DNA of 64,000 nucleotides from Escherichia phage vB_EcoM_JNE01: the sequence record OR670491. One strand, written 5' to 3'. The translations under genes and the position numbers were made by a program. The notes beneath the pieces are model-generated. The model was given only the letters and a program-made list of their open reading frames with translations. It was not told the origin of the DNA and ran no database searches. Of this stretch, positions 10,957 through 60,300 are shown piece after piece. The first letter of the stretch is position 1; every line of letters starts with the position of its first letter.

Positions 10957-11582
10957 GGGACAAATTCGTAAATGGTGATACAATGATCTATGCACAACCA
11001 CAATGACAGTACTTGTACTGATAATCTTCCCTAATTCACTTGAAAACGTAAAGGATAGATGAGCTTTTCATTGTAGCGAACAGCAAAAGAAACCCGTTAG
11101 ATGTGGGCATAGTTTGAACCCCTCACGGCAATGCGGCTGTATAAAGAACCACGTTAGGATGGCTGGTGGTTCCTCGATAGACATATAAGGATAACACCTT
11201 ACGAATTATCTAAGGGAGAGTTATCAGATTTTGTACAATATAGTTGCGTCCAAAATTTGAGTACTCACATTAAGTATTTGATTGCATAGATACTTAATGA
11301 AGATACACTATGTTTAAAAGTGTAGACCGTCATATGAAACTGAAGTAGAGAGAAACAGGATGATCCGCTTTCGTGCTCTTTAAGAGTAATCTTCAATGCA
11401 ATAGCTCTGATACCATCAGCGTCAAATTCCCCTCTGTGTGGGGGGGGAAGAAAAATCCCTTTCTCAAATCCCGTCAATATTATAAAGTCCTTGACAGTTA
11501 TTATACATTCGCGTAAGATACGTAGTATCAGAAGCGAACAGACATCTCGAAGAGATGGATGATTAACATTAAGGAACATCTA

Positions 11583-11792
11583 ATGAATTCAACAATCTTC
11601 TTAGTAGCAGCTCTTTCAATGCAAAGCGGTGTACAAATCACTCCAATGAATTCCATGAATCAATGTATTTCTGTTCGTGATAGTACCTACGAACAGGTCA
11701 ATAAAAATATCTGGATGTCTATTGACAAAGAACAGATGTGGTGTTATAACAGTAATACAAAAGTTAAACTGTTTGTTGGTGAGAAAGAATAA
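11583..11792 (+). CDS. hypothetical small protein
   Basis: ATG 7 nt after AAGGA; internal start of track ORF 11559. Confidence 0.35.
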   Translation: MNSTIFLVAALSMQSGVQITPMNSMNQCISVRDSTYEQVNKNIWMSIDKEQMWCYNSNTKVKLFVGEKE

Positions 11793-11874
11793 TAGTTGAC
11801 ACGTAAGAAGTTCTAGAGTATAATTTCTACATTGAGTACTGAACTAAATCATTAATTAATCAAGAGGGTTTATC

Positions 11875-12060
11875 ATGCAAGTTATCGTTCTTATCGTTGG
11901 TATCGTACTGGGTGTTTATGGTCATTCCTGGATGCAGGAGAAGTTTCCTAATACTCGTCCAGACTTCTGTAGCACTACGGTGAGTTCTGAACTATCTAAA
12001 GATAGCAAAGATAGCATTGGTACTAAACTGGATAAAGTACTGAACGTAATTAACGAGTGA
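11875..12060 (+). CDS. hypothetical small membrane protein
   Basis: 61-aa ORF with hydrophobic N-terminus. Confidence 0.4.
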   Translation: MQVIVLIVGIVLGVYGHSWMQEKFPNTRPDFCSTTVSSELSKDSKDSIGTKLDKVLNVINE

Positions 12061-12071
12061 GGTAAGTTGTA

Positions 12072-12359
12072 ATGTTTATTCCTAATAATTCTAAAATTGG
12101 AACACAAGTACAACTTCTAGAAGATGTAAGTACTTGCAGTGGTACTTTCACTAAAGGTCACATCTTAACTATCACAGGTGAAACCGAGCGTGGTTATGAT
12201 TTGGAAGATGCTGATGGTAATCGTATCTTAGAAGCAGGGTTTAGTCGTTTTGTTGAAGTGGATAGTACTGACCAGAAAGAAACAGAAGGTCATTGTTTTG
12301 ATTACCAAGAAGTCAACTCAAAATGTATCTGTGGTGAAATTTATAGTAAATGGGATTGA
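12072..12359 (+). CDS. hypothetical protein
   Basis: 95-aa ORF. Confidence 0.45.
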   Translation: MFIPNNSKIGTQVQLLEDVSTCSGTFTKGHILTITGETERGYDLEDADGNRILEAGFSRFVEVDSTDQKETEGHCFDYQEVNSKCICGEIYSKWD

Positions 12360-12383
12360 CATAGTATAGAAATACTATATAAT
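12356..12383 (+). promoter_or_regulatory. sigma70-type promoter
   Basis: TTGACA, 16-nt spacer, TATAAT, 74 nt upstream of the 12430 ATG. Confidence 0.55.
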
Positions 12384-12429
12384 GTTTATATCAAATGAAA
12401 TTCACTTTAACCAACGATAGGAAAATATT

Positions 12430-12708
12430 ATGTCTTTAACCAAAGAAGAACGTGACCTTATTGAAAAAGCAATCTGGTTTTATGCAAATGAAAGCCAGTG
12501 CAGTGATGAAGAAGCACGTGAACTGTGCAACCACCTTAGACAGAAACAAGAACTGAAAGTGTATCGTATACGTGCTGTGGATGATGGGGATCGTATTGTT
12601 CTAGCGGAAACAAAAGAAGAAGCAGAACAAATCTTCACTGATAATAACGAAAATCCACATTACATGGAAGAAGTCTGTGAAGTGAAAAAAGGTACTTATA
12701 TCGATTGA
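12430..12708 (+). CDS. hypothetical protein
   Basis: 92-aa ORF downstream of promoter. Confidence 0.45.
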   Translation: MSLTKEERDLIEKAIWFYANESQCSDEEARELCNHLRQKQELKVYRIRAVDDGDRIVLAETKEEAEQIFTDNNENPHYMEEVCEVKKGTYID

Positions 12709-12733
12709 CAGTACTGAATAATAGCAGTATAAT
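12705..12733 (+). promoter_or_regulatory. sigma70-type promoter
   Basis: TTGACA, 17-nt spacer (gtactgaataatagcag), TATAAT; about 90-nt leader containing an inverted repeat. Confidence 0.55.
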
Positions 12734-12826
12734 GTTTATATCAAAGGGAATGCAGTGAAAGGAAAGACAGCATAATCGTACTCGTCACTGCGTTTCCACC
12801 CTTTTAAATTAAATGAGGAATTAATT

Positions 12827-13135
12827 ATGTTTCAAACTAACACTCAAGGTTTTGTAATCATCGATCTGAATAAAAACAGCGGTCATTGGATGAAACCTAC
12901 TGACGCATGTATGCAGTTTGATTTCTTAGGTTATAAAATCAGTGTAAGCACTGGTGGTTCAGTACTGCGTGGTGGTTGTATCGTTGAACATCTCGTCACT
13001 GATCCTGAAGGCCGCGAATACGAAATCGCAGGTTCAGTACAAGATGCTATCATGTTCGTGTGTCAGCGTGAAATGAATGGCAGTAACAGCAACGCACTGA
13101 CAAACGCATTATCACAAGAAGTGGAGGTTCGTTAA
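12827..13135 (+). CDS. hypothetical protein
   Basis: 102-aa ORF. Confidence 0.45.
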   Translation: MFQTNTQGFVIIDLNKNSGHWMKPTDACMQFDFLGYKISVSTGGSVLRGGCIVEHLVTDPEGREYEIAGSVQDAIMFVCQREMNGSNSNALTNALSQEVEVR

Positions 13136-13380
13136 TGAAATATATTGTTTTAGTAGTAATGGCGTTTTTACTGAGTGCTTGTGATGCAAGTACGAAAGAC
13201 CGAACCAGTGAATTCCTTCTCCCTACTGAGTTAAAGGATGCTGGGTGTAAGATTTACCGTATGCGTCAGGAAGGTGATGGTGCAACTTTGTACACAGTTT
13301 ACTGCCCTAATGCTAATACCAGTACATCTTTCCGTACAGGAAAGACAACCGTACATGCATCTGTCATCAATGGTGAATAA
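13135..13380 (+). CDS. putative lipoprotein
   Basis: N-terminus MKYIVLVVMAFLLSAC has a lipobox-like L-S-A-C. Confidence 0.45.
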   Translation: MKYIVLVVMAFLLSACDASTKDRTSEFLLPTELKDAGCKIYRMRQEGDGATLYTVYCPNANTSTSFRTGKTTVHASVINGE

Positions 13381-13381
13381 C

Positions 13382-13747
13382 ATGGGATTGGACACAACTA
13401 AAGCCCAAGAACTACATAAGCGAGCAATGGATGAAGAGTTTTTAGCAAACATTCGCTATAAGATGGAGAAGCTATATCGTAGTGCTGAAATCTTAGAAGA
13501 CAAAAAACCTTCCATGACTACAAAATATTTCAATATCACTAACGACATTTGTTATAGTCCAGGTGAAATTTGGATTGAGTGGGAGTCTTGGACAGGGGAT
13601 ATTCTTCGTGTGCAAGGTTATTGTGTTCAATACGCTTTCGACGGTAATTCTAAATCACTGAAGGTACTATGTACTAATACGAATGATGTAGTGGATGTCA
13701 ACTTACATTGTATTAAATGGGTTGACTTTGGAGATGTAGATGAATAA
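13382..13747 (+). CDS. hypothetical protein
   Basis: Internal ATG (frame +144) of track ORF 13238; start uncertain. Confidence 0.35.
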   Translation: MGLDTTKAQELHKRAMDEEFLANIRYKMEKLYRSAEILEDKKPSMTTKYFNITNDICYSPGEIWIEWESWTGDILRVQGYCVQYAFDGNSKSLKVLCTNTNDVVDVNLHCIKWVDFGDVDE

Positions 13748-14000
13748 AATTAAATTCATTGTACTTATGGTTCTCATGTGTGTTTCACTCACTGGGTGTG
13801 ATGAAGACCTTTCAGCTAAAACATTAGCTCGCTGGAACTGTAAGATGACTGGTGAGAAGTTCAAAACAGTCGAAAGTGTTTGTGTTGGTGAAGGTAGAAG
13901 CCGCTGCGACAAAATGGTTGACCATGAAGTGGAATTGTTTGTATATGATTGTCCAACAAAGGGTCGAGTACTGAGTAAAAGTGAGTTAATTTATAATTGA
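13740..14000 (+). CDS. putative lipoprotein
   Basis: N-terminus MNKIKFIVLMVLMCVSLTGC has a lipobox-like L-T-G-C. Confidence 0.45.
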   Translation: MNKIKFIVLMVLMCVSLTGCDEDLSAKTLARWNCKMTGEKFKTVESVCVGEGRSRCDKMVDHEVELFVYDCPTKGRVLSKSELIYN

Positions 14001-14032
14001 CAGTACACCACAAAAGGGATACAATGTATCCC
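13997..14032 (+). promoter_or_regulatory. sigma70-type promoter with palindrome over the -10
   Basis: TTGACA, 17-nt spacer, TACAAT (14020-14025); inverted repeat GGGATAC (14016-14022) / GTATCCC (14026-14032). Confidence 0.5.
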
Positions 14033-14056
14033 TACTTTAATCGAAGAGGCTAACAA

Positions 14057-14266
14057 ATGACTACTAATGAAATGCTGAAAGCAATCTGGGATAAAGGTTA
14101 TGAACTGAAAGTAACCAGTACTGAGATTCGCGTATTCAAGACTGAGTACTGTGAATATCTGGATTTAGATACTTATAACAGTATTGTCGTTGAGCAACAC
14201 AAAGGCAATGTTACTGAAAGTATTGATTCAGTACTTAAACGTTCTTTAGCTATCGTTGGTGCTTAA
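14057..14266 (+). CDS. hypothetical protein
   Basis: 69-aa ORF, AGAGG upstream. Confidence 0.45.
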   Translation: MTTNEMLKAIWDKGYELKVTSTEIRVFKTEYCEYLDLDTYNSIVVEQHKGNVTESIDSVLKRSLAIVGA

Positions 14267-14373
14267 AATGAATTCAGATTTACAGAAGATGATTGGATTT
14301 GGTATTTCTGTGTTTTTTGTTATGATTTCTTTTGCAATTTTCATCCCTAAACTATTTCATTAAGAGGTGTATT

Positions 14374-14568
14374 ATGATTTCTTTATATGTTGCTGTTATG
14401 CTCACTCATGGACAAATCGACCGCACCGTAGGTAAAGGTGTTTACACTACAGCAGATGAATGTTACACTGCTACTGCTTGGCCTCAAGATGAAGGTTCAA
14501 GTAATGAATTCAAATGTCTCAAAGTTAAAGGTGACTTTGTTAATCTTAAGGTTGTTGAGGCCAAATAA
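14374..14568 (+). CDS. hypothetical small protein
   Basis: Internal ATG (frame +42) of track ORF 14332, AGAGG upstream. Confidence 0.35.
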   Translation: MISLYVAVMLTHGQIDRTVGKGVYTTADECYTATAWPQDEGSSNEFKCLKVKGDFVNLKVVEAK

Positions 14569-15068
14569 TGGATATAAACGATTTACTATCGATAGTTTCA
14601 AGACCATGTAAACACTCTTTTGATAGTCATTCCTTTAATTACACAGACAAGATTCAAGTAGTCACCGAGGAATGTTATGGAGTAACAACTATACAGATTT
14701 TGGATAACTATAGTAATAGTTTATGTTATATATACTTGACAAACCGCAGTGATGAACTTAAAAAAACCGAAATTGTATTATTTGGCAAACAGTGTTCAGA
14801 CACGCGTGATATTGAGATACTTTATTATCCTGGAAAATCTACACGCGAAATTGTTTATGACATGTACGCACTAGATGATAACTTTGTTATTGATTACAGT
14901 ACTGAAGAAAAGGTTTTTCAACAAAGTTTAGTACACAACTTTGTGTTGGGTGATCCTGGTATTCCAAAGATTTTTAAAATTCTCGATTCAATTACAGTGG
15001 ATTTTGAATTTCATATGTGCATACGTTCTGAATACTTGGATGATTTTGTGGAGATTTTCGGTTTATGA
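14568..15068 (+). CDS. hypothetical protein
   Basis: 166-aa ORF. Confidence 0.45.
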   Translation: MDINDLLSIVSRPCKHSFDSHSFNYTDKIQVVTEECYGVTTIQILDNYSNSLCYIYLTNRSDELKKTEIVLFGKQCSDTRDIEILYYPGKSTREIVYDMYALDDNFVIDYSTEEKVFQQSLVHNFVLGDPGIPKIFKILDSITVDFEFHMCIRSEYLDDFVEIFGL

Positions 15069-15286
15069 AACGATTTTACATCAACTATCTGTGTGTATCC
15101 GAATTCAATAACGTAAGAGGTCACACAATCGAAAAGCAATCTATGGATGTATATGTTCGTGCTGAAAGTCCTACACATGCATTGTTTAAACTTATCAGTG
15201 AAGTCACCAAGTACAATACTCCCAAAACCCAACGCTACATTGGTGCTTTGTATGATATCAATGAAGTTCCAGGGTGTGATATATAA
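15065..15286 (+). CDS. hypothetical protein
   Basis: 73-aa ORF, ATGA overlap. Confidence 0.4.
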   Translation: MKRFYINYLCVSEFNNVRGHTIEKQSMDVYVRAESPTHALFKLISEVTKYNTPKTQRYIGALYDINEVPGCDI

Positions 15287-15293
15287 AAAGTAC

Positions 15294-15322
15294 TTGACTT
15301 GGATTAGAAATCTATATATAAT
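15294..15322 (+). promoter_or_regulatory. sigma70-type promoter
   Basis: TTGACT, 17-nt spacer, TATAAT. Confidence 0.55.
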
Positions 15323-15354
15323 ATATACATATTAATCGAAATGGAAAATAAATC

Positions 15355-16029
15355 ATGTTGGCTAATCTTCAGTACTTTGTAACTTCTCCGTGGGATGAAC
15401 GTGGTGTTGAACTGAACCACAAAGAAACAAGTTTTGATGACATTGGTGTAGGTACATACATCTCTGCAAATTACGACCGTAACCATCCATTTTGGGAAAA
15501 GTTTAAAGATAATGAAAGTAATCGTGTTATGTCATTATTTCAACTTAAACAACCAGGGATTGTAGCTGGTTATAATGAAGAAGACATGATCAATGTATTC
15601 ACTAACTATAAGGTAGTTGAAGAATTCCCGTGGATTAATAAACACAACGGCAATGCTTATAGTTCAGATGATTATCGTGAAATGGTCACAAATGATGATG
15701 CAATTACGTTACCAAGTGGACGTCCAGTTCCATCATCAACAAATTGTATGTCTTCTTATGGTACGGCTGATAATCTTCAGCAAATCCTGAAGAAGTATAA
15801 GCGTGTTCTGGATTCAGAAGACGAGTTAGTACTGTGTATTCATCCTGTGTACAAATCCGAACAACCAGAAAGTGGTGGCTGGCGTTGGCATAAGAATGGT
15901 ACATATATTGGTAACAAAAGAAGTAAACGTGGATATGAATACCTGGCTGATGAACCTGATATTGAAGTAGTAATCGGCTTTAAATTTCTTAAAGTACAGA
16001 GGAAAGACAATGCTTTATCTAATTCTTAG
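15355..16029 (+). CDS. hypothetical protein
   Basis: 224-aa ORF downstream of promoter. Confidence 0.5.
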   Translation: MLANLQYFVTSPWDERGVELNHKETSFDDIGVGTYISANYDRNHPFWEKFKDNESNRVMSLFQLKQPGIVAGYNEEDMINVFTNYKVVEEFPWINKHNGNAYSSDDYREMVTNDDAITLPSGRPVPSSTNCMSSYGTADNLQQILKKYKRVLDSEDELVLCIHPVYKSEQPESGGWRWHKNGTYIGNKRSKRGYEYLADEPDIEVVIGFKFLKVQRKDNALSNS

Positions 16030-16252
16030 TTTTGTGGTTGCAATCGTTTTTATGTTTTACCCAACCTTCGTAGCACTGGTTGTACAGAAAAGCTACCGTA
16101 CTATTGGCATCATCATGGTACTGAATATTGCACTTGCTCTAGTGTCTATGCTTGTAGTAGTATCATCGCTGGCGTGGGTTGATATCATTACATTTTGGTT
16201 ATTTGTGTTTTCTTATTTGATGATTGTTGAAGTCAAACCTATTGACTTATAA
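16010..16252 (+). CDS. hypothetical membrane protein
   Basis: 80-aa ORF with two hydrophobic segments. Confidence 0.4.
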   Translation: MLYLILSFVVAIVFMFYPTFVALVVQKSYRTIGIIMVLNIALALVSMLVVVSSLAWVDIITFWLFVFSYLMIVEVKPIDL

Positions 16253-16300
16253 GTTACTTCTGATATAATAACTTTACATTAACTGATATGAGGTATTAAA

Positions 16301-16633
16301 ATGTTAGCACTTATTTCTTCTATTCCGGCTATGGTACTCGTTTGGATTATTGTTTTTTATATGTTTTCATCTGCTAAAACGAAAGAAAAGATGGAAGACT
16401 TGTTCTTGTTGGATACAACTGTAGTTGAAGTATTCTTCTGGGTAGTAGTCATCGGAACTGTTGTAATGATTCTGAACTTTGTATTACCACTTGGAATCGC
16501 TCACAACATTCTGTCCCTTGTTGAATATTTTATTGCAATCATTTGGTTCATGCAATGTCTGTTTGCTGGTAAGGTTGGAATCTGGTTTACGTTGGTGAAA
16601 GAAAAGATTAGTACGCTTACTAAAACTAAGTAA
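16301..16633 (+). CDS. hypothetical membrane protein
   Basis: 110-aa ORF with hydrophobic segments. Confidence 0.4.
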   Translation: MLALISSIPAMVLVWIIVFYMFSSAKTKEKMEDLFLLDTTVVEVFFWVVVIGTVVMILNFVLPLGIAHNILSLVEYFIAIIWFMQCLFAGKVGIWFTLVKEKISTLTKTK

Positions 16634-16705
16634 TATTCTCAAAAATGTTAAATACTTCTGTACAAAGTAATGTTCAGAAGTATTTTTACTTTTATTGAGG
16701 GTATC

Positions 16706-17068
16706 ATGAAATATGTAATAATAACTATAACTTTTTTAATTGGATTGATTTCTAGTTCAGCCAATGCAGTAGTTGGTGAAGAACTAGATTGTATGGGGAA
16801 TGATGGGATATGGCATGTACTTACAAATGACCCACAAAATGGAACTAATATTGTAGTTGACGGTGATGTTTATAGGTTCAGAAACGAAAGTACAATAGGT
16901 AACAAAAAAGTCTCGACATATAAAAATGATGCTGATATAATAGCTAACGTAATCTTGATTGTAGATCCAAAGACAAGGGATGGAGATATCTATATTGTAA
17001 TATATAGAGATTCTTCGAATAAACGCGATGAGGATATAGATAAGCTTAATCTACATTGCGAATTTTAA
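16706..17068 (+). CDS. hypothetical secreted protein
   Basis: Internal ATG (frame +36) of track ORF 16670; signal-peptide-like MKYVIITITFLIGLISSSANA. Confidence 0.45.
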   Translation: MKYVIITITFLIGLISSSANAVVGEELDCMGNDGIWHVLTNDPQNGTNIVVDGDVYRFRNESTIGNKKVSTYKNDADIIANVILIVDPKTRDGDIYIVIYRDSSNKRDEDIDKLNLHCEF

Positions 17069-17079
17069 ACGAGGTTCTT

Positions 17080-17448
17080 ATGTTAAACACGGTTCTTCAG
17101 TACATCTTAAGCATTCCATTTATTCTTAGCAGTCTTGTATCTGTAGCATCAATACTTTTTAGTATCTTTTCAGTAATGTACTGTGTATATACTAAAAAAT
17201 ATACATTCATCAATAAGGTAAACTCCTTATTTGAAACTGATAGTGTACCGTATTGTGTGTGGTCTTTTAGTGCAGCGGGAATTTTTGCAACATTCCTTCT
17301 TTACTGCCTGGATATTATTGACAGAAGTTATGTTCTAATTAGCATTGGGGTAGGATTATATTCATCGTGTTGGTACTTGATTTATGTTGTAGACTCGTGG
17401 TATACTGCATATCAGCAGTACACGATTAATAAACAATATTCCAAGTGA
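17080..17448 (+). CDS. hypothetical membrane protein
   Basis: Internal ATG (frame +24) of track ORF 17056; hydrophobic segments. Confidence 0.4.
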   Translation: MLNTVLQYILSIPFILSSLVSVASILFSIFSVMYCVYTKKYTFINKVNSLFETDSVPYCVWSFSAAGIFATFLLYCLDIIDRSYVLISIGVGLYSSCWYLIYVVDSWYTAYQQYTINKQYSK

Positions 17449-17458
17449 GGATATGACC

Positions 17459-17812
17459 ATGAAAGTATTTTTATTCTTTATCTGTATGATTTTTTGTGCT
17501 GTACAAGCTCATGCGGAACCACTGGCAAAGATGTTTTGTTCAGAGGGTGAAGTACAGCACATCTATCAAGGTGATTCTGATGACCACGATATCATTTACA
17601 TTGATGGATCGATTTATAACTTTGTAAAAGAACATACAGTTGGTGATGTAAGTTTTACCGAGTACGCATCGAATGTAGATAAGAATGAGTTAGCGTTTAT
17701 CCAGGTTAACTTAGAAGAAGATGCTGATGAAGTACAAGATGTTAAATTGGTTCTAATGCGTAAAGGTGCAGGTACTACAGAGTTTGGTGGCTCCTGTGTG
17801 TTTGATGCATAG
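17459..17812 (+). CDS. hypothetical secreted protein
   Basis: Signal-peptide-like MKVFLFFICMIFCAVQAHA. Confidence 0.45.
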   Translation: MKVFLFFICMIFCAVQAHAEPLAKMFCSEGEVQHIYQGDSDDHDIIYIDGSIYNFVKEHTVGDVSFTEYASNVDKNELAFIQVNLEEDADEVQDVKLVLMRKGAGTTEFGGSCVFDA

Positions 17813-17826
17813 TCGGGAGATAAAAT

Positions 17827-18018
17827 ATGTTGATTTATCAAGGTGATGGTATTCGTGTATTGCAGCATCCATTCCTTCAAGTCTTCGATGTACAGAAGTT
17901 TCAAGAAGGTGATGATCCAAGAACATATGGACGTAAACATGATTACTTCACAGTAAAGCAATGTACAAGTATTGAAGAAGTTCGTTCATTAGTGAAAGAA
18001 CTAGAAAATAATGGTTGA
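17827..18018 (+). CDS. hypothetical small protein
   Basis: 63-aa ORF; its stop lies inside the terminator hairpin. Confidence 0.35.
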   Translation: MLIYQGDGIRVLQHPFLQVFDVQKFQEGDDPRTYGRKHDYFTVKQCTSIEEVRSLVKELENNG

Positions 18019-18043
18019 CTTCGGTCAACCTTTTTTGTATACT
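18013..18043 (+). terminator. composite terminator-promoter element
   Basis: GGTTGAC-TTCG-GTCAACC-T6; the -35 TTGACT (18015-18020) sits in the hairpin, 17-nt spacer, TATACT (18038-18043). Confidence 0.6.
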
Positions 18044-18073
18044 TAATTCATATTAATTGATGAGGGTATTGCG

Positions 18074-18520
18074 ATGCTGGTATATCGTTTTGAATTAGGC
18101 TTTAGTTATGTAGAAGAAAACTTATATCCAGTGAGATCAATTGGACCGTTCGCACGTTACTATTCACAATACAGTACTGACAACGGGTTTGACCGTTTGC
18201 GTTTAGGAACACCACACGAATTGCAACCTGAACCAGAAAAGGATGGCATTCATTGCATCAAGCACGGTTGGGCTTTTGGCTGTGCATCAATTAAAGACCT
18301 TATTCGTTTCTTCGCTAATGACTTAGGTCGTTTGCATCGTTCCGGCTTTCAGGTTTTTGTATATGAAGTTCCTGATAATCATGTTGATGTTGGTGGTCAC
18401 CAGGTTCAGTACTACGTAGGTAGTGCTAATTTAGTACGCATCATGGGTGTACGTGAAATGAAGCAAGAATACCGCCAGATGAAAGAGGTTGAAGATGCAA
18501 AAAACGCTGTACACGTTTAA
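18074..18520 (+). CDS. hypothetical protein
   Basis: 148-aa ORF. Confidence 0.45.
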   Translation: MLVYRFELGFSYVEENLYPVRSIGPFARYYSQYSTDNGFDRLRLGTPHELQPEPEKDGIHCIKHGWAFGCASIKDLIRFFANDLGRLHRSGFQVFVYEVPDNHVDVGGHQVQYYVGSANLVRIMGVREMKQEYRQMKEVEDAKNAVHV

Positions 18521-18854
18521 GAAGTGGTACACATTCACTTTACCTGGTGACAAATACTTTGACCAACAGGATGATGAATATTACAAAAAAGAAACTCTCA
18601 AATTACTGAAGATGGCTAAACAAGCCCTTTCTGTATACAACAGTTCTTTAAACGTAGCCTATGAGCATTACCGAATCACGGCAAAGATTGATGAAGAAGA
18701 TGGTGAACTTTCATTCTTTGAATACGATATTGTATACTTTGGTTACACCGATGATGAAGACCCAATCAACGTTGATAAGATACGACTTGACCTCACCGCT
18801 ATATCTGTTATACTTAAACAACTGGCTGAGATGTGTGGCTTAATTGAAACATAA
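18495..18854 (+). CDS. hypothetical protein
   Basis: ATG 6 nt after AGAGG; internal start of track ORF 18489. Confidence 0.45.
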   Translation: MQKTLYTFKKWYTFTLPGDKYFDQQDDEYYKKETLKLLKMAKQALSVYNSSLNVAYEHYRITAKIDEEDGELSFFEYDIVYFGYTDDEDPINVDKIRLDLTAISVILKQLAEMCGLIET

Positions 18855-18866
18855 TAGAGGAACACT

Positions 18867-19133
18867 ATGAAACTTAAAATTGAATACAGTGGTTTCTGTA
18901 TGCGTAAAAATACTGAATTTGTAAACCGCACTAAAGGTTCAGAACTCTTTTTTAAAGAGATGCAAATTCCTTATGTAATTGAGACAGTTGGAGATCGTGA
19001 AGTACTGTCCTATGAAGAATACACTAAAGTAGATGTACCGTGGTATTCTGAGCACATGTATATGGACATGGCAGAACGTTACAATTGCGAATTTATTATT
19101 AAACCAAAAACTATCACAATCAAATTTAACTAA
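18867..19133 (+). CDS. hypothetical protein
   Basis: 88-aa ORF. Confidence 0.4.
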   Translation: MKLKIEYSGFCMRKNTEFVNRTKGSELFFKEMQIPYVIETVGDREVLSYEEYTKVDVPWYSEHMYMDMAERYNCEFIIKPKTITIKFN

Positions 19134-19144
19134 GGTAAAATAAA

Positions 19145-19438
19145 ATGATCAGTGCTTCAGTGAATGCCAATATTGTTTCAGATGTAAATTTAATTAAAGA
19201 ATGCACAGATAATGATACTCGTGATCTTTATATTAACAACGTCATTGAGCAATATGGAAACATGGGTGTTATGGAGTTCGTCCGCTTAAACGGTGAACTA
19301 ATCAAGAATAAGATTCGTCTTAAACTTGCGGTTCATCCAAAGGCGTGGGCATTCACAATGAAGTACGCAGAAGATATGTTAGAGCTACGCCGCAGTACTG
19401 TTTACGAACGTTTACATAATGGCACATTAGAGGGTTAA
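19145..19438 (+). CDS. hypothetical protein
   Basis: 97-aa ORF. Confidence 0.4.
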   Translation: MISASVNANIVSDVNLIKECTDNDTRDLYINNVIEQYGNMGVMEFVRLNGELIKNKIRLKLAVHPKAWAFTMKYAEDMLELRRSTVYERLHNGTLEG

Positions 19439-19439
19439 T

Positions 19440-19685
19440 ATGAAAAAGATTGCATTGGGATTGGCTTTTCTTGCATTGAGTGCTTCTTCGTTTGCAGGGC
19501 AAGCAGAATATGATCAACCACGTTCTGTGAAGTGTGTAGATTTGCGTGGGGGAATTATATCTTATGATGAACATGAAGTACGACGTGCTAAAATTGATAG
19601 TGATGGAACAACGGTAATACTGAAGGATGGAAAATTCATTCAATTCAGTCCAGCAGTTCAATGTATCACGGTTTTGCAAGAATAA
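19440..19685 (+). CDS. hypothetical secreted protein
   Basis: Signal-peptide-like MKKIALGLAFLALSASSFAGQ. Confidence 0.45.
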   Translation: MKKIALGLAFLALSASSFAGQAEYDQPRSVKCVDLRGGIISYDEHEVRRAKIDSDGTTVILKDGKFIQFSPAVQCITVLQE

Positions 19686-19764
19686 AAGCTTTATTGATCT
19701 ATATCAATTTTCATTACCAAAATGTAAATATTAATGAGTAAAATATATTTTCATGGAGGTTTAT

Positions 19765-20001
19765 ATGGAAGTTGTTATTATAATATGTGCATTTATTTCT
19801 TTGATAGTAATGTTATCTCCAACTTTTATTGCACACAAATTGAAGAACAATAATGCTGAAGCAATAACATACGTTAACATTTGTTGTGTAATGACATATG
19901 GAATACTGTTGTTCTTTACTGAATTTACTTTTATTCCTATAGTTGTATGTTCATCAATGTTCATATGGTTATTCTTACTGTATGAATCTATTAAAAAATA
20001 A
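19765..20001 (+). CDS. hypothetical membrane protein
   Basis: Internal ATG of track ORF 19753 after GGAGG; hydrophobic. Confidence 0.35.
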   Translation: MEVVIIICAFISLIVMLSPTFIAHKLKNNNAEAITYVNICCVMTYGILLFFTEFTFIPIVVCSSMFIWLFLLYESIKK

Positions 20002-20010
20002 TCAATAACT

Positions 20011-20043
20011 GGGTTGACCGAAGTCAACCCTTTGTTGTATAGT
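20011..20043 (+). terminator. composite terminator-promoter element
   Basis: GGGTTGAC-CGAA-GTCAACCC, T-rich tail, TATAGT. Confidence 0.55.
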
Positions 20044-20052
20044 GAGGTTCTT

Positions 20053-20625
20053 ATGAATCGTAAAGGCCGCTTCAAAGTATCAAAGAAAAATAAGAGTTCC
20101 AAATTTAAGCCCATTGTTATATCCGTGAAAAGTAAGCCTGAATTAACTGCTCTTAGTCATAAGATTGTTTCACCTAAGATTAAAGTATCTTACATTAATT
20201 CGTTAAAATTCCAAAAGGTAAAACCACAAGACCAACTCATTTCACTTATATTTGAACGTAATGATTTTGAGATATCAGTCGATGATTATAGAGGCTATAA
20301 TGCTGGCTTCATTAATGTAACTTGTAATAAAGAACTAACTGCGTTAGAAAATTTGACATGTATAATAAATCTTGATAAAGGGGTGGTGACGTACCAATTT
20401 GTACATTTAACCAATATCAATAATGGTATGGGTGTGCAATCCAGAATAATAGTACCTACATGTGATGAGACTAGTTTAGCGAAGCTCAATGAAGAAGAAT
20501 ATTTTCAAGAAAGTATTGTAACTGAGCATTTGGATGTTATAATAGAAACCTACAAAGAATGCGTATGGGTTTTGAACGCAATCAAACCTAAATTATGTTT
20601 AATGAATATAGTTCGTGATTTGTAA
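20053..20625 (+). CDS. hypothetical protein
   Basis: Internal ATG (frame +39) of track ORF 20014, GAGG upstream. Confidence 0.45.
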   Translation: MNRKGRFKVSKKNKSSKFKPIVISVKSKPELTALSHKIVSPKIKVSYINSLKFQKVKPQDQLISLIFERNDFEISVDDYRGYNAGFINVTCNKELTALENLTCIINLDKGVVTYQFVHLTNINNGMGVQSRIIVPTCDETSLAKLNEEEYFQESIVTEHLDVIIETYKECVWVLNAIKPKLCLMNIVRDL

Positions 20626-20637
20626 ATTGGAGAGAAA

Positions 20638-21081
20638 ATGAGTTGGATACATGTTAATCATTCAGTACTGAACGAAATTGATATCTTTGCTTTCGTCAAC
20701 CTTAAGGATGATACTGTCCTTCGTGGACGTTTGTTCACTACACACGAAGGAGTTAAAGGTATTGCACTGATGGATACAAATGGTGCAGTATATGCTTCAC
20801 AGGAGCTACCTGCGTGGACGTATAGCAGTACTGAAGAGAATGTATTCGCAGAAGTAATGAAAGGCTTAGAGGCTCTGCCTGGTGGCGATATCCAGAACAT
20901 CGTATTCAATATTGAACGCGGTAATTACTCACCAGAACATCTAAGTGCATTAGCTATGAGAGCATTGAAGTCAGCTATAGTCACACCTAAGTGTGTGATT
21001 CTGAAGTATGTTCCTGACTTATCGTTAAGTGCACAAGATATGGAATCATTCATTTTTACATCTGAACTGAAACAATATTGA
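20638..21081 (+). CDS. hypothetical protein
   Basis: 147-aa ORF. Confidence 0.45.
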   Translation: MSWIHVNHSVLNEIDIFAFVNLKDDTVLRGRLFTTHEGVKGIALMDTNGAVYASQELPAWTYSSTEENVFAEVMKGLEALPGGDIQNIVFNIERGNYSPEHLSALAMRALKSAIVTPKCVILKYVPDLSLSAQDMESFIFTSELKQY

Positions 21082-21180
21082 ACAAATTTCAGTTAAGTGA
21101 TATAATTACAATGAGTTAATAAGAACAGAACTCATTTGTTATAAATACAAATGTAATTTATCTCTTTAAGGAGTATTGAA

Positions 21181-21564
21181 ATGGTTGATAAATGGAACAA
21201 GAAAGATCCATCACACGATGTGGATATTTCAGGTCTTGACAATGAGCACAAGCATAAGTATCTAGATTCACTAGGTCTACTAAAGCCTGACCAAAGTCTA
21301 TCTCATGACCGCCCTTCACGTGAAAAGGCATTCAGCCTTGAATCCTTGGGTCATGAATTGAATCGTGTATTTGAAGATCACCCAATCTATGTTCGTGATA
21401 TTATTGAAAAGCTTAAAGTAACTCCTAAAGAGCACTTTAAAGCAACAGTACATGCGGCGTTCCGCTCTTTGCACGAAGCACTAAAGAAAACTCATAACCT
21501 ACGTAAGATTCATGATGATATCGTGAAAGCTATCGAAGGTGAGAAACATAAGTTCAAGAAATAA
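21181..21564 (+). CDS. hypothetical charged protein
   Basis: 127-aa ORF; shares a YLDSLGLLKPDQ-type motif with the 22128 ORF. Confidence 0.45.
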   Translation: MVDKWNKKDPSHDVDISGLDNEHKHKYLDSLGLLKPDQSLSHDRPSREKAFSLESLGHELNRVFEDHPIYVRDIIEKLKVTPKEHFKATVHAAFRSLHEALKKTHNLRKIHDDIVKAIEGEKHKFKK

Positions 21565-50306: not shown

Positions 50307-50315
50307 GGAACACTA

Positions 50316-51168: not shown

Positions 51169-51181
51169 AAAGGAATAACAA

Positions 51182-51388: not shown

Positions 51389-51391
51389 ATT

Positions 51392-51583: not shown

Positions 51584-51586
51584 ATC

Positions 51587-51766: not shown

Positions 51767-51769
51767 ATT

Positions 51770-51952: not shown

Positions 51953-51955
51953 AGC

Positions 51956-52141
51956 ATGTACAGAGACTTCTATATAAGTAAACTTAATCCTGTACTACAA
52001 ACTCGTATTCCTCCAGCGAAATTTATCCTCAAAACAAAAGCACAAAGGTATGAGTTCAAAAAGTGTACAAAAGAAATACTCAGTACTAAAAGTAATAAGA
52101 ACATATACTATCAAGTACTCGTCCTTATATTCAAGTACTAA
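51956..52141 (+). CDS. small-ORF array member 12
   Basis: MYRDFYISKLNP ... VLVLIFKY. Confidence 0.45.
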   Translation: MYRDFYISKLNPVLQTRIPPAKFILKTKAQRYEFKKCTKEILSTKSNKNIYYQVLVLIFKY

Positions 52142-52161
52142 AGTACTAAAGGAATAAACAT

Positions 52162-52356
52162 ATGCAACACCAGCACAAATTGTACTACACGCAATTTCTT
52201 AATCAGCAACTACAACAATTTATACCTAATGAACCATTACCATATGATCATCCCCTGGGTGCACGCGTTTTCAAAAGAACTATTAATGAACTATTGAGTA
52301 CTACCGACGACGATTCCCTGTACTACTGCTTAATTAAACTTATATATAGGCACTAA
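52162..52356 (+). CDS. small-ORF array member 13
   Basis: MQHQHKLYYTQFL ... LIKLIYRH. Confidence 0.45.
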   Translation: MQHQHKLYYTQFLNQQLQQFIPNEPLPYDHPLGARVFKRTINELLSTTDDDSLYYCLIKLIYRH

Positions 52357-52357
52357 T

Positions 52358-52552
52358 ATGCAACTCCTGCACAGAGAATACTACACACAATTCCTTAAAG
52401 AGAACTACAGAGATTCAGTCCCCGTAACTCCTTTTGACCCAAATAACCCAAGTTCAATCTTCCTCTTTAACGACGCAACACGTACTGCACTCTGTACTAC
52501 CAATAAACATTGGCACTACGCATTTGTACTTATACTTATATACAGACACTAA
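52358..52552 (+). CDS. small-ORF array member 14
   Basis: MQLLHREYYTQFL ... LILIYRH. Confidence 0.45.
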   Translation: MQLLHREYYTQFLKENYRDSVPVTPFDPNNPSSIFLFNDATRTALCTTNKHWHYAFVLILIYRH

Positions 52553-52561
52553 GGCACTAAC

Positions 52562-52747
52562 ATGAATGAGCACAGAGAGTACTACATAAAGAGACTTCAC
52601 CCCGACCTACGAGATACTATACCATTCGTTCCACATAATATACATGAACCCGTAGTGCAGTACTACTTTAATATAACAGTACAAGCCGCATTAAGTGAAT
52701 ATAGACTTGAGTACTTCACTGTACTAAAACTTATATATAAGTACTAA
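52562..52747 (+). CDS. small-ORF array member 15
   Basis: MNEHREYYIKRLHP ... LKLIYKY. Confidence 0.45.
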   Translation: MNEHREYYIKRLHPDLRDTIPFVPHNIHEPVVQYYFNITVQAALSEYRLEYFTVLKLIYKY

Positions 52748-52812
52748 CCCCTTGACATATACTCCAAGAATGATATACTACTTTCTATATAGAAACAATA
52801 CAGAGATAACAT

Positions 52813-53022
52813 ATGCACGAACATAAAGATTTCTATGTAAGCCAACTCCCCGTAATAGACCAATTCTGGTTAGCTGATGCAGCACCGTGTAATACAGATA
52901 CTAAGTACGGACAATTGTGCTTTGTTGAATCTATAAAGAAAGTACTACAACAAGATAAAACTAAGTACCGTAAAGAAAAAGACTTGTACTTTAATATAGT
53001 AGAACTTACCTTTATGTTCTAG
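52813..53022 (+). CDS. small-ORF array member 16
   Basis: MHEHKDFYVSQLP ... VELTFMF. Confidence 0.45.
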   Translation: MHEHKDFYVSQLPVIDQFWLADAAPCNTDTKYGQLCFVESIKKVLQQDKTKYRKEKDLYFNIVELTFMF

Positions 53023-53343
53023 TATAGAGAATAGTACAGGATACTAAGGTCTAGATGTGTTCCTAGGGAAGCATTATAACAGGCTTTAACATCTCGTAAA
53101 GATGTTAAAATTCAGCCTGCTCGACGTCTGAATTGTTAAAATTCAGCCTGGACAAATGCGATCACTAGGATTCTATCTAGGCTGAATCCCGTAATCACAA
53201 GTACGCATATGTAATCATATATAAACATTTCCGTGAGAAGTTTTGAGTACTGTATAGTATTAAGAATCACCGTAGGAGCACAGAATGATTAAGAATGCAC
53301 GGGAATGATTCAGAATGATTCAGTACTGATATGTCACTAAGTA

Positions 53344-53369
53344 GGCAGAGGAAGTCTGCCGTACTTTTT
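53344..53369 (+). terminator. rho-independent terminator (approximate coordinates)
   Basis: GGCAGA-ggaag-TCTGCC followed by GTACTTTTT. Confidence 0.45.
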
Positions 53370-53707
53370 AGTTTCCAAGCTCCTTTTCCATTTTTCAAAT
53401 TACATCAAATGCAATCAAAAGTAATCACGCAATGATTAGTACTGAATTATTACTTTCACCTTAATTTCAAATACCCGTTGACCCTTCGGGGTAAAATTCC
53501 ATTACCCCTTGAGGCTCCAGCAAAAAGTTGGTTAGTACTCCATCCTAAATCTCGATCCTAAAAATTTTGGAGTACCTATGAAATAAAAGTTGGATCTTCG
53601 AAAGTTGAAATTTACGTTGGGATGATTAGGATTTGTGAACTATAATGTAGTTCAAGTTGGAGTACAGAGTGAGAACAATCTAGAGTACTGAAAGATGAAA
53701 TAACATC

Positions 53708-53735
53708 TTGACAATACAATTCAGTACTGTATAAT
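53708..53735 (+). promoter_or_regulatory. orphan sigma70-type promoter in non-coding region
   Basis: TTGACA, 16-nt spacer ending cagtactg, TATAAT; no ORF within 1.3 kb downstream. Confidence 0.45.
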
Positions 53736-54202
53736 GTTGTACATAGGGTGAGGGAACGGCGGCAACTGTTCCTTAATCTCAGTATCATGTCGTGAGACAT
53801 TACGCAAGTTATATCCTCCTGTGCATAGTGCTGGTGGTTATCTCTTGAACCTCATTTTTTCTCGTGAACTAAACAGTACTGATATTAACAGAATGGTAGC
53901 AGTACTGATATTAATCTAATGCATTATGCCACCAGCTTGTGCTGGTGGATTCCCTCTAACAGTATTCAGTACTACATGATGGTCTTCATCCTCCTGGGGT
54001 AACATAGTGAAGGTTATGATGGCAGTACTGAATACTCCAAACTCAAGATGGATTAAGGGTGTAGTACTGACGGATTTTGGGTGTAGTTACCCTGGATGGA
54101 TTTTGGACGTAGATATGTCTAGCCCTCCAGAAGTCTGGAAGTAAAGATGGCTATCCATCTAGACGGCTAAACGGCTAGATTTCTGGATGGCTGGACGTTT
54201 GG

Positions 54203-54234
54203 ACGGCTAAACGGCTAAACGGCTAAACGGCTAA
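54203..54234. repeat. iteron-like tandem repeat (ACGGCTAA x4)
   Basis: Four perfect 8-bp units with degenerate copies and GGATGG/GGACG motifs on both sides. Confidence 0.6.
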
Positions 54235-54878
54235 ACGTCTGGATGTATGGATGGCTAAATCAAAATTTTATTTTGTTTTTTCCAATAGTTCCCCTACCGC
54301 GTGGGGATAGTTTCCCCGCAGTATCTGGTGTTAGATTTTTCTGAATCTGGAATCATTATCTTATAAACTGGGGGCAATGTCAACGGCCTGGACGGATATT
54401 TTTAAAAATTTTTTCAGTACTGAATTTTGGGCGTAACTATGCACCCGGTGGGCTTGAGTCTTTCTCGACTTGATGGAACTATTATACAGTACTGAAAAAA
54501 TAAAGCAATACCCTGGAAGCAAAAAAGTTTTAATTAATTTGCTTGCTATCCTGGGCCGGACTATGGTACTATATTTCAGTACTGAGAAAGTGCGTTTACC
54601 TGCTAGGGTGCGGGAGTGTATCCTTTTTTTATATCTTGAATTTTGGACGGATCTTCCCACCCCCTGGGGTATCCGCTTTCTCGCGTCTATGTAGTAATTA
54701 TACGCTTTTTCAGGATCAAGTCAATACCTAAAAACAAAATAATTGAAAATAATTTAACGCGTTTAAACGGCCCGTAACGCCCTGGAATGATTAGAATGGT
54801 GCAAATGTATAGCTTAGGTGTATTAATGCGTTAGAATGCGTCTGAGGCCGTTTTATGGGGTGTAGTAGTGATTTGGTT

Positions 54879-55046
54879 GATTCAGTACTGAATAATAGTA
54901 CTCCTATATAGAAAGATAGTTCCCCTGGATTGATTCAGTACTGAATGATAGTACTGAATAATAGTACTCCTATATAGAAAGATAGTTCCCCTGGATTGAT
55001 TCAGTACTGAATGATAGTACTGAATAATAGTTCCCCTATATAGAAA
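54879..55046. repeat. tandem direct repeats (unit 53-66 bp, about 2.5 copies)
   Basis: Unit GATTCAGTACTGAATGATAGTACTGAATAATAGTACTCCTATATAGAAAGATAGTTCCCCTGGATT, each copy carrying 2-3 AGTACT palindromes. Confidence 0.65.
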
Positions 55047-55079
55047 GAAAACTATTTTAAAAGTATTTGTAGAAAGTAC

Positions 55080-55139
55080 TTGCACAGTACTGATAAAAGC
55101 GTATAATGTTTTACATCGAGAGCGGGAACTCTTCCCGCT
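55080..55139 (+). promoter_or_regulatory. promoter / 5' stem-loop cassette
   Basis: TTGCAC, 16-nt spacer, TATAAT (55102-55107), gttttacatc, hairpin AGCGGGAA-ctc-TTCCCGCT (55121-55139). Confidence 0.6.
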
Positions 55140-58740: not shown

Positions 58741-58767
58741 TTCCCCTGGTAACTAAGGAATAATAAA

Positions 58768-59004
58768 ATGCTTGAACAAATCAAATCAACGTCTGCGAAT
58801 GTAACGGGAACGGTATCACACTTTACTAGTGATGAATCGCGTGGTGTTCCTTATTGTGCTGTACATGTAAACACTGATGGCAACTACTGGTTTACGGTTT
58901 ACGGATCATATTCATTTGGACGGCCAGGGCATCAAAAAATTCTGGATAAAGTACAACCAACGGGTAAAAATATCACTGCCGAAATGTTTTATAAAAAATC
59001 ATAA
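58768..59004 (+). CDS. hypothetical protein
   Basis: 78-aa ORF. Confidence 0.45.
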   Translation: MLEQIKSTSANVTGTVSHFTSDESRGVPYCAVHVNTDGNYWFTVYGSYSFGRPGHQKILDKVQPTGKNITAEMFYKKS

Positions 59005-59009
59005 AGTAC

Positions 59010-59069
59010 TTGCAATTAGTTTTTAGTACTGTATAATATTTTACATCGCAAGGGGAAACGGTTTCCCCT
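59010..59069 (+). promoter_or_regulatory. promoter / 5' stem-loop cassette
   Basis: TTGCAA-N16-TATAAT; hairpin AGGGGAAA-cgg-TTTCCCCT. Confidence 0.6.
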
Positions 59070-59088
59070 GGTAACTAAGGATAATCAA

Positions 59089-59388
59089 ATGAAAGTTGCA
59101 ATCATCGCCCTGGCTTTATCTGTATCGTCTTTCGCTGTTAACGCTTCCGTTGATGTACCGCGTGAAAAATTCATTCAGTGCACTGTTGCAATGACTAACG
59201 AGGAAACGGCTGAGATTGTTACCAAATCCCTGGAACTGGCCCCTGCAATGTTTGCTAATGGCCCGTACCATGAAGAAGATGATCAGGGTAGCACGACCAT
59301 CTATTACGATGCAAAAAGTAAACGCGGTTCAGTTACTGTAATGGATACTGAGAAAGTTACATTCACGGGAGTAATTAATTGTTTTTAA
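59089..59388 (+). CDS. hypothetical secreted protein
   Basis: Signal-peptide-like MKVAIIALALSVSSFAVNA. Confidence 0.5.
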   Translation: MKVAIIALALSVSSFAVNASVDVPREKFIQCTVAMTNEETAEIVTKSLELAPAMFANGPYHEEDDQGSTTIYYDAKSKRGSVTVMDTEKVTFTGVINCF

Positions 59389-59405
59389 TGAAGTACTGAA
59401 TCATA

Positions 59406-59433
59406 AGCCCACTATAAGAAGTGGGCTTTTTTT
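59406..59433 (+). terminator. rho-independent terminator
   Basis: AGCCCAC-tataagaa-GTGGGCT + T7. Confidence 0.6.
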
Positions 59434-59475
59434 ATTGTAGTACTGAATACTTTAAAAATAGTTTTGAAATAGTAG

Positions 59476-59618
59476 TTGACATTACCAGGGAAAGGCGTAG
59501 AATGTATTACATCAGGACGGGGAACACTAAGTAGACCGCCAGTAAGTCGAACGAAAAACTGGACACGACCTGGAAACTTTGATAAACTAACTTACACTTT
59601 AATTGAGGAATTAAAAAA
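59476..59618 (+). promoter_or_regulatory. promoter with long structured leader (second copy of the 56807 leader motif)
   Basis: TTGACA-N16-TAGAAT, then tacatcaggacggggaac ... cgaacgaaaaactgg, 115-nt leader before ATG. Confidence 0.45.
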
Positions 59619-60098
59619 ATGGCAAATGTAAAATCATTCTTTAAAGCACTGGTATCTTCTGACGTATCTATCGCCGCTGAATTGCTGGCTGACCTGGATA
59701 ATGATACCATGAAAGCAGTACGCAATAATTTTAATATGGCGTACAGTGCAGCAAAAGAACTGCAAGCCAAAAAGGTAGCAGAACTGGAAGCGGCAAAGGC
59801 AGAACGTGAAGCAGAACTGCAAGCAACAATCGAAAGCATCCAGGCGGCGGTAAGTGGATTGGATATCGAGATCGTAACCGATATGGCACATAAAGCCCTA
59901 GCTGCAAAATACGGTGAAGTAAAAGCGGTTAAAGAAAAGAAATGGATTCAGGACCGCGTTAACGTAGTACTTGACAACGGGGAAGAATATCTTATTCCTG
60001 TACGCGGTAACTGCATTGCCGTAGTACTGGACGCGATTAACTCCAGTGGTATGACACGCGAGGAATGGATCGAAGCTCATCGCAAAGTTGAAGCATAA
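59619..60098 (+). CDS. hypothetical protein
   Basis: 159-aa ORF, Ala/Glu/Lys-rich central segment. Confidence 0.5.
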   Translation: MANVKSFFKALVSSDVSIAAELLADLDNDTMKAVRNNFNMAYSAAKELQAKKVAELEAAKAEREAELQATIESIQAAVSGLDIEIVTDMAHKALAAKYGEVKAVKEKKWIQDRVNVVLDNGEEYLIPVRGNCIAVVLDAINSSGMTREEWIEAHRKVEA

Positions 60099-60119
60099 CA
60101 ATAAAAGTACTGAATCACT

Positions 60120-60146
60120 AGCCCACCTTAAACGGTGGGCTTTTTT
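60120..60146 (+). terminator. rho-independent terminator
   Basis: AGCCCACC-ttaaac-GGTGGGCT + T6. Confidence 0.6.
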
Positions 60147-60300
60147 GTGTTTATCGTTTACCAGGCCACCAGCACCGCCTAGAAACGATTCTAACGCATT
60201 AAACTGATTATCTGATGCATTGCCCTAGCTGGTGGCGTTAAGGCTGTAAGAACGCGATTGAGAGCGTTTAAAGTATTTTGCAAAAAGTAATAAAAAGTAC

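Follow-up and report, generated by a model that had tools for sequence, protein, structure and literature searches.

A conserved cluster of Chi sites in the terminal repeat of Asteriusvirus jumbo coliphages, a probable RecBCD-directed end-protection and recombination island

The long direct terminal repeat (DTR) of Asteriusvirus jumbo coliphages contains a dense cluster of the Escherichia coli Chi octamer, GCTGGTGG, that most likely serves as a RecBCD-directed island for protection and recombination of the phage DNA ends. The octamer is specifically enriched in the repeat, the cluster is confined to the repeat, conservation and turnover of the sites are seen across four genera, and the orientation of the sites is sorted by position. 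The starting point was a 64,000-nucleotide stretch of the genome of Escherichia phage vB_EcoM_JNE01 (sequence record OR670491), hereafter the window, for which an earlier note, made from the letters alone, had reported six intergenic copies of the octamer.

Chi sites in the window follow the terminal repeat

An exact search of both strands found GCTGGTGG six times, at 11162 (+), 53830 (+), 53929 (-), 53941 (+), 60166 (-) and 60228 (+), in agreement with the earlier note. Dinucleotide-preserving shuffles contain 0.64 +/- 0.93 Chi sites, with a maximum of 4 and none of the 100 shuffles reaching 6, so the note's expectation of less than one copy by chance holds as well. No open reading frame (ORF) of at least 40 amino acids on either strand covers any of the six sites, which are indeed all intergenic within the window.

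By megablast, the window belongs to an Asteriusvirus jumbo coliphage of the PBECO4/121Q/phAPEC6/fEgEco12 group; the nearest record is phage Turkey5, with 98% identity over window positions 1-24000. The closest relatives, namely, Turkey5, fEgEco12, vB_Ec-M-J and PBECO4, were all isolated on E. coli, and the host of the phage analyzed here would be E. coli or a related enteric bacterium with a RecBCD enzyme that reads GCTGGTGG. In the vB_Ec-M-J record, direct terminal repeats are annotated at 1..21525, and the DTR of fEgEco12, 20,993 bp in length, has been identified by PhageTerm and confirmed by restriction digests (PMC13070987). Base 1 of both these linear records aligns at window position 53340; thus, the window comprises the final 53.3 kb of unique genome and, after it, the initial 10.7 kb of the DTR. 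The left physical terminus accordingly appears to lie at 53340, with the boundary placed by homology at 88-91% identity. The visible left part of the DTR of this phage (53340..64000, plus strand), homologous to the sequence from base 1 of vB_Ec-M-J and fEgEco12, runs past the end of the window, and the remaining ~10 kb of the ~21-kb repeat lie beyond it. Five of the six Chi sites are located in the 10.7 kb of the repeat vs one in the 53.3 kb of unique sequence (binomial p = 7e-4). Hence the clustering follows the ~21-kb DTR starting at 53340 rather than non-coding DNA, in which the earlier note had seen the sites concentrated.

The leftmost site of the repeat (53830..53837, +) is specific to this phage: Turkey5 has ACTGGTGG at this position and the other relatives have a deletion. 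The next one (53929..53936, -), 590 bp from the putative left terminus, is the first one that RecBCD coming in from the left end would meet in the active orientation, and is kept in all 6 Asteriusvirus genomes compared as well as in Klebsiella phage fENko-Kae01. Together with the site at 53941..53948 (+), it forms a 20-bp palindrome, CCACCAGC-N4-GCTGGTGG, which in the window reads CCACCAGC-ttgt-GCTGGTGG (53929-53948) and the arms of which are exactly the octamer; as single-stranded DNA, it folds into the hairpin noticed from the sequence, with an 8-bp stem and a 4-nt loop (dG -9.8 kcal/mol, z = -4.9). This hairpin does not qualify as an intrinsic terminator: the stem is present, but no T run accompanies it on either strand, and the element is absent from the terminator scan. 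The loop (window 53937-53940) is TTGT in the window, fEgEco12 and ECO103 4-12-1 (hereafter ECO103), and ACAA in Turkey5, vB_Ec-M-J and TH47. Given that Turkey5 is the closest relative of the window, the loop state does not track relatedness, which suggests recurrent inversion of the hairpin loop at the Chi palindrome, for example, by template switching.

The second inverted pair, at 60166..60173 (-) and 60228..60235 (+), starts ~6.8 kb into the DTR, and both its sites are conserved in 6/6 Asteriusvirus genomes. The pair encloses 54 bp (60174-60227), close to the ~55 bp of the earlier note. No structured element is proposed at this location, the 91-nt segment with the pair folding not significantly better than its shuffles (z = -1.85). 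An intrinsic-terminator-like hairpin (60120..60141, +) lies just upstream of the pair and a promoter, TTGCAC-16-TATAAT (60301-60328), lies downstream, so that the pair occupies a terminator-to-promoter spacer. The solitary Chi at 11162..11169 (+), intergenic and within the unique region, is also found in ECO103; it is probably not part of the island, a single site in 53 kb being compatible with chance.

The exact octamer is enriched in the repeats of related phages

The DTRs of the Asteriusvirus relatives carry 10-12 Chi sites each vs 0.2-0.6 expected: 12 in Turkey5, 11 each in vB_Ec-M-J and ECO103, 10 in TH47, and 12 in fEgEco12 (578-, 590+, 6619-, 6681+, 10868+, 11378+, 12328+, 13577+, 15925+, 17823+, 19402+, 19625+). 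The count over a full genome, which the earlier note had proposed as a check, was made on the complete relative ECO103 (351,992 bp) and gave 28 Chi sites: the 21.3-kb repeat has 11 of these, and the remaining 330.7 kb have 17 (p = 3e-7). The density is 0.4-0.7 per kb in the DTRs compared to 0.05 per kb in the rest of ECO103, with a ten-fold difference within the ECO103 genome. In five other genomes, the flanks of the repeats (TH47, vB_Ec-M-J, fENko-Kae01, OU509535 and XbC2) contain 0-2 Chi sites in 12-42 kb. Nearly all of the 17 ECO103 sites outside the repeat are located inside long ORFs, mostly as GCT-GGT-GG (Ala-Gly-Gly), and the related words GGTGCTGG and GGTGGTGC are as common there as Chi itself. 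The earlier note had held that equal frequency in coding regions would refute its reading; such a pattern is found in ECO103 outside the repeat, and it leaves a function of the clustered sites within the repeat unrefuted.

Markov models of orders 0-4, fitted to each repeat separately, predict 0.1-1.5 sites vs the 8-14 observed, and the exact octamer is over-represented 20- to 50-fold. Among the 168 words of the same composition, Chi ranks at the top in the four DTRs for which all words were ranked. The next-best word is far behind (11 vs 4 in ECO103, 14 vs 4 in fENko-Kae01, 8 vs 2 in Alcyoneusvirus Muenster). In all ten sequence sets analyzed, Chi exceeds every other same-composition word, with 8-14 vs at most 6 copies in the full repeats and 5 vs 3 in the partial repeat of the window; the other words average 0.13-0.34. 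In the ECO103 repeat, the words next in rank overlap Chi. Four DTRs, one from each of four genera, jointly contain 43 exact Chi sites, whereas the 24 single-mismatch variants average 0.29 per DTR and are not enriched. The Chi motifs of Pseudomonas and Lactococcus are absent, and no extended flank consensus surrounds the sites, apart from a weak preference for T in position -1 and A in position +1. Promoter words account for the other 8-mers enriched in the repeat. By megablast, the repeat has no match in 5,426 complete E. coli genomes, and an origin of the repeat from the host is therefore rejected.

We also considered the palindrome as a family-specific element. A scan of IMG/VR for CCACCAGC-N4-GCTGGTGG identified 46 loci; apart from 121Q, these have no relation to the family and are, for the most part, contigs of high GC content or terminator stems in other enteric phages, and this candidate was dropped. 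In some of the enteric-type contigs, the double-Chi palindrome serves as the stem in a bidirectional terminator (AAAAAAAGGCCCCACCAGC..GCTGGTGGGGCCTTTTTTTT). Some palindrome-bearing contigs carry 7-12 Chi sites in 8-13 kb, and one of these is 92 kb long, the size of P1.

Conservation within Asteriusvirus and turnover across genera

In an alignment of six Asteriusvirus repeats (MAFFT, fast mode), every Chi octamer is intact wherever the respective region is present, except for a single case, GCTGATGG in vB_Ec-M-J; the site at window 53830, which corresponds to ACTGGTGG in Turkey5, is the one recent gain. Three other genera, represented by the fENko-Kae01 group, Alcyoneusvirus and Mimasvirus, likewise have a Chi island, with sites that lie for the most part at non-homologous positions. 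In Klebsiella phage fENko-Kae01 (DTR 1-19736 by PhageTerm), 14 Chi sites fall within the repeat and 2 within the 30 kb that follow, including a palindrome, CCACCAGC-TTAA-GCTGGTGG, 484 bp from the end. Arms of exactly 8 bp are seen in the palindromes of two genera. Alcyoneusvirus Muenster carries 8 sites (DTR 1-20030), and its relative OU509535 has 9 in the repeat and 0 in 20.6 kb of flanks. In Mimasvirus XbC2 (OP292654.1), the repeat of which is placed by gene layout, there are 9 sites in the first 16.4 kb and 0 in the next 13.6 kb. XbC2 had been chosen as a negative control, that is, a phage of a host with a different Chi, and was abandoned as such when the same E. coli-type island was found. 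This phage, with 39% GC, is labelled as infecting Xanthomonas vesicatoria; its presumed terminal repeat (within 1-17500) contains all nine E. coli-type Chi sites, and the 12.5 kb beyond it contain none, which suggests that its evolutionary host has an enterobacterial-type RecBCD.

In the other genera, five Chi sites are embedded in sigma70-type promoters, where they occupy the spacer, the promoter segment under the least constraint. According to the annotation of the records, 22 of the 43 sites in the repeats of four genera are non-coding vs 13.3 expected (z = 2.9). Thus, the preference for non-coding DNA that the earlier note emphasized exists, but is mild, with about half of the sites located in genes. 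A terminator-like hairpin with an identical 12-nt loop, TGGTTAACGCTG, is present at ~10850-10885 in fEgEco12 and at ~19335-19370 in fENko-Kae01, that is, at different repeat positions in the two genera; the 3' end of the TGGTTAACGCTG loop together with the stem constitutes a Chi site, and the change in the stem is compensatory (AGCCCAC/GTGGGCT vs AGGCCAC/GTGGCCT).

Orientation of Chi sites is sorted by position

Orientation relative to the genome ends, another check raised at the outset, proved informative: minus-strand sites are shifted leftward and plus-strand sites rightward, with mean relative positions in the repeat of 0.25 and 0.61, respectively (stratified permutation p = 0.003, four genera). 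The first correctly oriented Chi is found 216-578 bp from the left end in three of the four genera and, without exception among the four, 375-1361 bp from the right end.

Proposed role of the island and alternative explanations

A correctly oriented GCTGGTGG attenuates the degradation of a linear end by RecBCD and stimulates RecA-dependent recombination. From this activity, we infer that RecBCD gains access to the ends of the phage DNA and that protection and recombination ensue. After injection, the linear 350-kb genome would have the same repeat at both ends, so that active Chi sites would be needed for entry from either side; these would be supplied by the inverted pairs together with the sorting of orientation by position. 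Host RecBCD would load at either end, unwinding and degrading the DNA inward. From the left, it would meet a minus-strand Chi ~0.6 kb in and a second one at ~7 kb, that is, only one or two chances, and from the right, the first of about ten plus-strand sites would be reached ~1.4 kb in, making capture nearly certain; the loss before an available Chi would usually be at most ~0.2-1.4 kb from either end, and the degraded sequence would survive in the other copy of the repeat. At Chi, the RecBCD nuclease would be attenuated and RecA would be loaded onto the 3' tail; the resulting filament, consisting wholly of repeat sequence, would then invade the other repeat to yield circles or concatemers. 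Such joining would precede the expression of the phage's own UvsX-type recombination genes. With respect to the suggestion in the earlier note that these Chi sites act on RecBCD in an enterobacterial host, the coliphage relatives, the specific enrichment and the recurrence in four genera agree with it at the sequence level, whereas the organization by the DTR had been missed.

Several considerations weigh against this interpretation. That RecBCD reaches the ends, and that the outcome depends on RecBCD and RecA, is extrapolated from the biochemistry of the RecBCD-Chi interaction, and Chi would be redundant if the virion contained an end-protecting protein of the T4 gp2 type; no DNA-end protector is found among the fEgEco12 annotations, in which 487 of the 670 genes are unannotated, and no Gam-, Abc2- or gp5.9-like RecBCD inhibitor was recognized by PHROGs among 19 ORFs of the repeat. 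The fEgEco12 annotation includes RecA/UvsX-like and UvsY-like (recombination/ssDNA-binding) proteins as well as gp46/47-like proteins (recombination endonuclease subunits). Because the phage family encodes its own recombinases, the rule 'no Rec module, therefore many Chi', which was derived from lambdoids, is not applicable here, and for the same reason the benefit is probably limited to the period before phage gene expression. As for orientation, Muenster has no minus-strand Chi near the left end, the first one being located at 6.4 kb, and some sites may be homologous between genera, weakening the p value of 0.003. Although 80-88% of the sites are on the plus strand, other G-rich words show the same strand bias (0.5-0.9), so that this excess is not independent evidence of selection for orientation; we dropped it as an indicator and relied on position by orientation instead. 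Finally, the XbC2 repeat and the DTR boundary in the window are assigned by gene layout and homology, respectively, rather than measured.

A different benefit could derive from the same RecBCD-Chi interaction, namely, evasion of RecBCD-fed immunity, through reduced acquisition of CRISPR spacers taken from the degraded end of the injected DNA or through titration or inactivation of RecBCD. Cas1-Cas2 adaptation is fed by the degradation products that RecBCD releases on its way from a DNA end to the first Chi, and the island places Chi within 0.2-1.4 kb of both ends; moreover, with recombination genes of its own, the phage might dispense with host-mediated recombination. Nevertheless, some ten Chi sites spread over the whole 20 kb suit RecA loading inside the repeat and cumulative capture better than a single barrier at the end, and we regard immunity evasion as an unlikely explanation. 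It is quite unlikely, too, that the octamer or the palindrome is a binding site for a phage protein (for instance, a terminase or pac factor, an initiator of replication or an early regulator), its identity with Chi being coincidental or secondary. In two genera, the palindrome does keep a fixed distance to the terminus; it lies downstream of a perfect promoter, and its loop flips between TTGT and ACAA, as in a cruciform-prone element. However, the dispersed copies share no flanking consensus and occur in coding DNA, non-coding DNA and promoter spacers alike, the palindrome arms end exactly at the 8 bases of Chi, and Muenster and XbC2 possess the island without the palindrome; to our knowledge, RecBCD is the only reader of GCTGGTGG.

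That the cluster is a by-product of composition, codon usage, chance or captured host DNA is scarcely credible and is already contradicted by the Markov and word controls, the mismatch controls and the search of E. coli genomes. The GCT-GGT-GG coding context of most sites outside the repeat, the equal frequency of GGTGCTGG and GGTGGTGC there, and the slightly higher G+C content of the repeat (38-40% vs 35% for the window) are the observations in its favor; against these stand the repeat-fitted models, which even at order 4 fall far short of the observed counts, the lack of enrichment of same-composition and one-mismatch words, and the recurrence of the island in four genera without similarity to any of the 5,426 E. 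coli genomes.

The end-protection and recombination reading, which we favor, admits a more tentative generalization: it is possible, albeit doubtful, that the ~20-kb repeats of the whole RaK2-like jumbo phage family are dedicated RecBCD-handling modules, and that the rescue and joining of the ends in these virulent 350-kb phages depends on host RecBCD and RecA until the phage recombinases become available. If so, the asymmetric layout, with one or two minus-strand Chi sites on the left and about ten plus-strand sites elsewhere, would report the polarity of genome entry, and octamer enrichment in phage terminal repeats could reveal the Chi sequences of unknown or mislabelled hosts, as the example of XbC2 illustrates.

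Relation to known systems

P1 and the LLS/MD8 class offer the closest parallels. Phage P1 has 50 Chi sites near its terminal redundancy, at 0.53 per kb (Subramaniam & Smith, bioRxiv 10.1101/2021.07.08.451572). In P1, as well as P7 and D6, Chi is concentrated in or near the terminal redundancy downstream of pac, where the packaged ends lie, and the proposed role is RecBCD/RecA recombination of the terminal repeats that circularizes the injected linear DNA. The Chi density in E. coli is roughly 0.22 per kb, and the ~0.5 per kb of P1 is above this value. However, P1 is a temperate phage with headful packaging, the ends of which are spread over 20-40 kb, with Chi on both strands in a broad zone. 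By contrast, Asteriusvirus is a virulent 350-kb myovirus with fixed, exact repeats of ~21 kb, an island confined to the repeat, Chi orientation sorted by position and its own UvsX-type recombinase. The lambdoid phage LLS likewise carries clustered Chi at a genome terminus, at a similar density, with 20 of the 23 sites oriented for RecBCD entering from the nearby end; unlike Asteriusvirus, LLS lacks a phage recombination module, grows better with RecBCD and has cohesive ends instead of long direct repeats. Judged by these analogies, the island may work like the terminal Chi clusters of the LLS/MD8 class, although Asteriusvirus does not share the correlate of that class, namely, that a Rec module is lacking, and so falls outside it. 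Chi mutants and constructs used in the laboratory involve one or a few sites, whereas Asteriusvirus presents a natural, conserved multi-site island.

Phage T5 resembles Asteriusvirus in having a long direct terminal repeat (the first-step-transfer DNA) with pre-early genes and a non-coding terminal region with repeats, and the ORF-poor region at window 53340-55105 recalls the non-coding injection-stop region of the T5 repeat. The T5 repeat was considered as a closer analogue and rejected: it is 10.2 kb long and contains only 2 Chi sites, both on the plus strand, with no comparable island. It follows that coliphage terminal repeats do not carry a Chi cluster as a rule.

The report on fEgEco12 discusses circularization through the repeats and mentions neither Chi nor RecBCD (PMC13070987), and full-text literature searches found no description of a Chi island in the terminal repeats of jumbo phages or Asteriusvirus, nor did the literature examined yield plating results on rec mutants for this family. 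The role has already been proposed for P1 and LLS; as far as these searches show, the island appears to be new for this jumbo phage family. Recruitment of host Chi at phage DNA ends, so far associated with temperate P1 and recombinase-less lambdoids, would thereby extend to virulent jumbo phages equipped with recombinases, and the presence of Chi in such phages argues for a benefit in the first minutes after injection, either end protection or circularization of a very large linear genome. The proposed role predicts that the efficiency of therapy-candidate phages (fEgEco12, phAPEC6, UE-S1 and others) depends on the recBCD and recC genotype of the host. The Chi island could also serve as a sequence marker for terminal repeats that are collapsed in assemblies.

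Other features of the terminal repeat and its surroundings

The first ~1.8 kb of the DTR (53340..55105) are ORF-poor and contain an end hairpin, tandem repeats and many CAGTACTGA motifs. The hairpin (53341-53360) is at the very end of the DTR; the tandem repeats are 4.4 copies of ACGGCTAA (54203-54237) and 2.5 copies of a 66-bp unit (54884-55048). A perfect consensus sigma70 promoter, TTGACA-16-TATAAT (53708..53735, +), reads rightward through three Chi sites and into ~1.3 kb devoid of ORFs. After this region, the repeat encodes many small early-type ORFs, each preceded by a sigma70-like promoter. The PHROGs search assigned all 19 repeat ORFs to families without an assigned function, with a weak secondary match (E = 7e-9) of the ORF at 63255-63596 to a family labelled 'DNA ligase'. 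Rfam at the gathering threshold and a tRNA scan of the whole window detected no structured RNA and no tRNA.

The palindromic core AGTACT (in CAGTACTGA or AAAGTACTTGCA) is extremely common throughout the window, and densest at 53000-55100; in ECO103, AGTACTGA is represented by 68 copies in the 21-kb repeat and 290 elsewhere. In the repeated early promoters, the motif is found directly in front of the -35 element; in the terminal non-coding region, it is also present on its own. Just upstream of the DTR boundary, the plus strand of the window (49067-53022) encodes ~18 consecutive, tightly packed ORFs of 59-81 amino acids (one of 224), and vB_Ec-M-J has similar arrays of ~70-amino-acid ORFs after its repeat. 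Further upstream, the minus strand (37697-48965) encodes nine tandem paralogous ORFs of 358-447 amino acids, with the GC skew switching to match. The last of these paralogues is denoted 'E3 ubiquitin-protein ligase HERC1' in the annotation of Turkey5, and in the homologous ECO103 genes several Chi sites are encoded as Ala-Gly-Gly.

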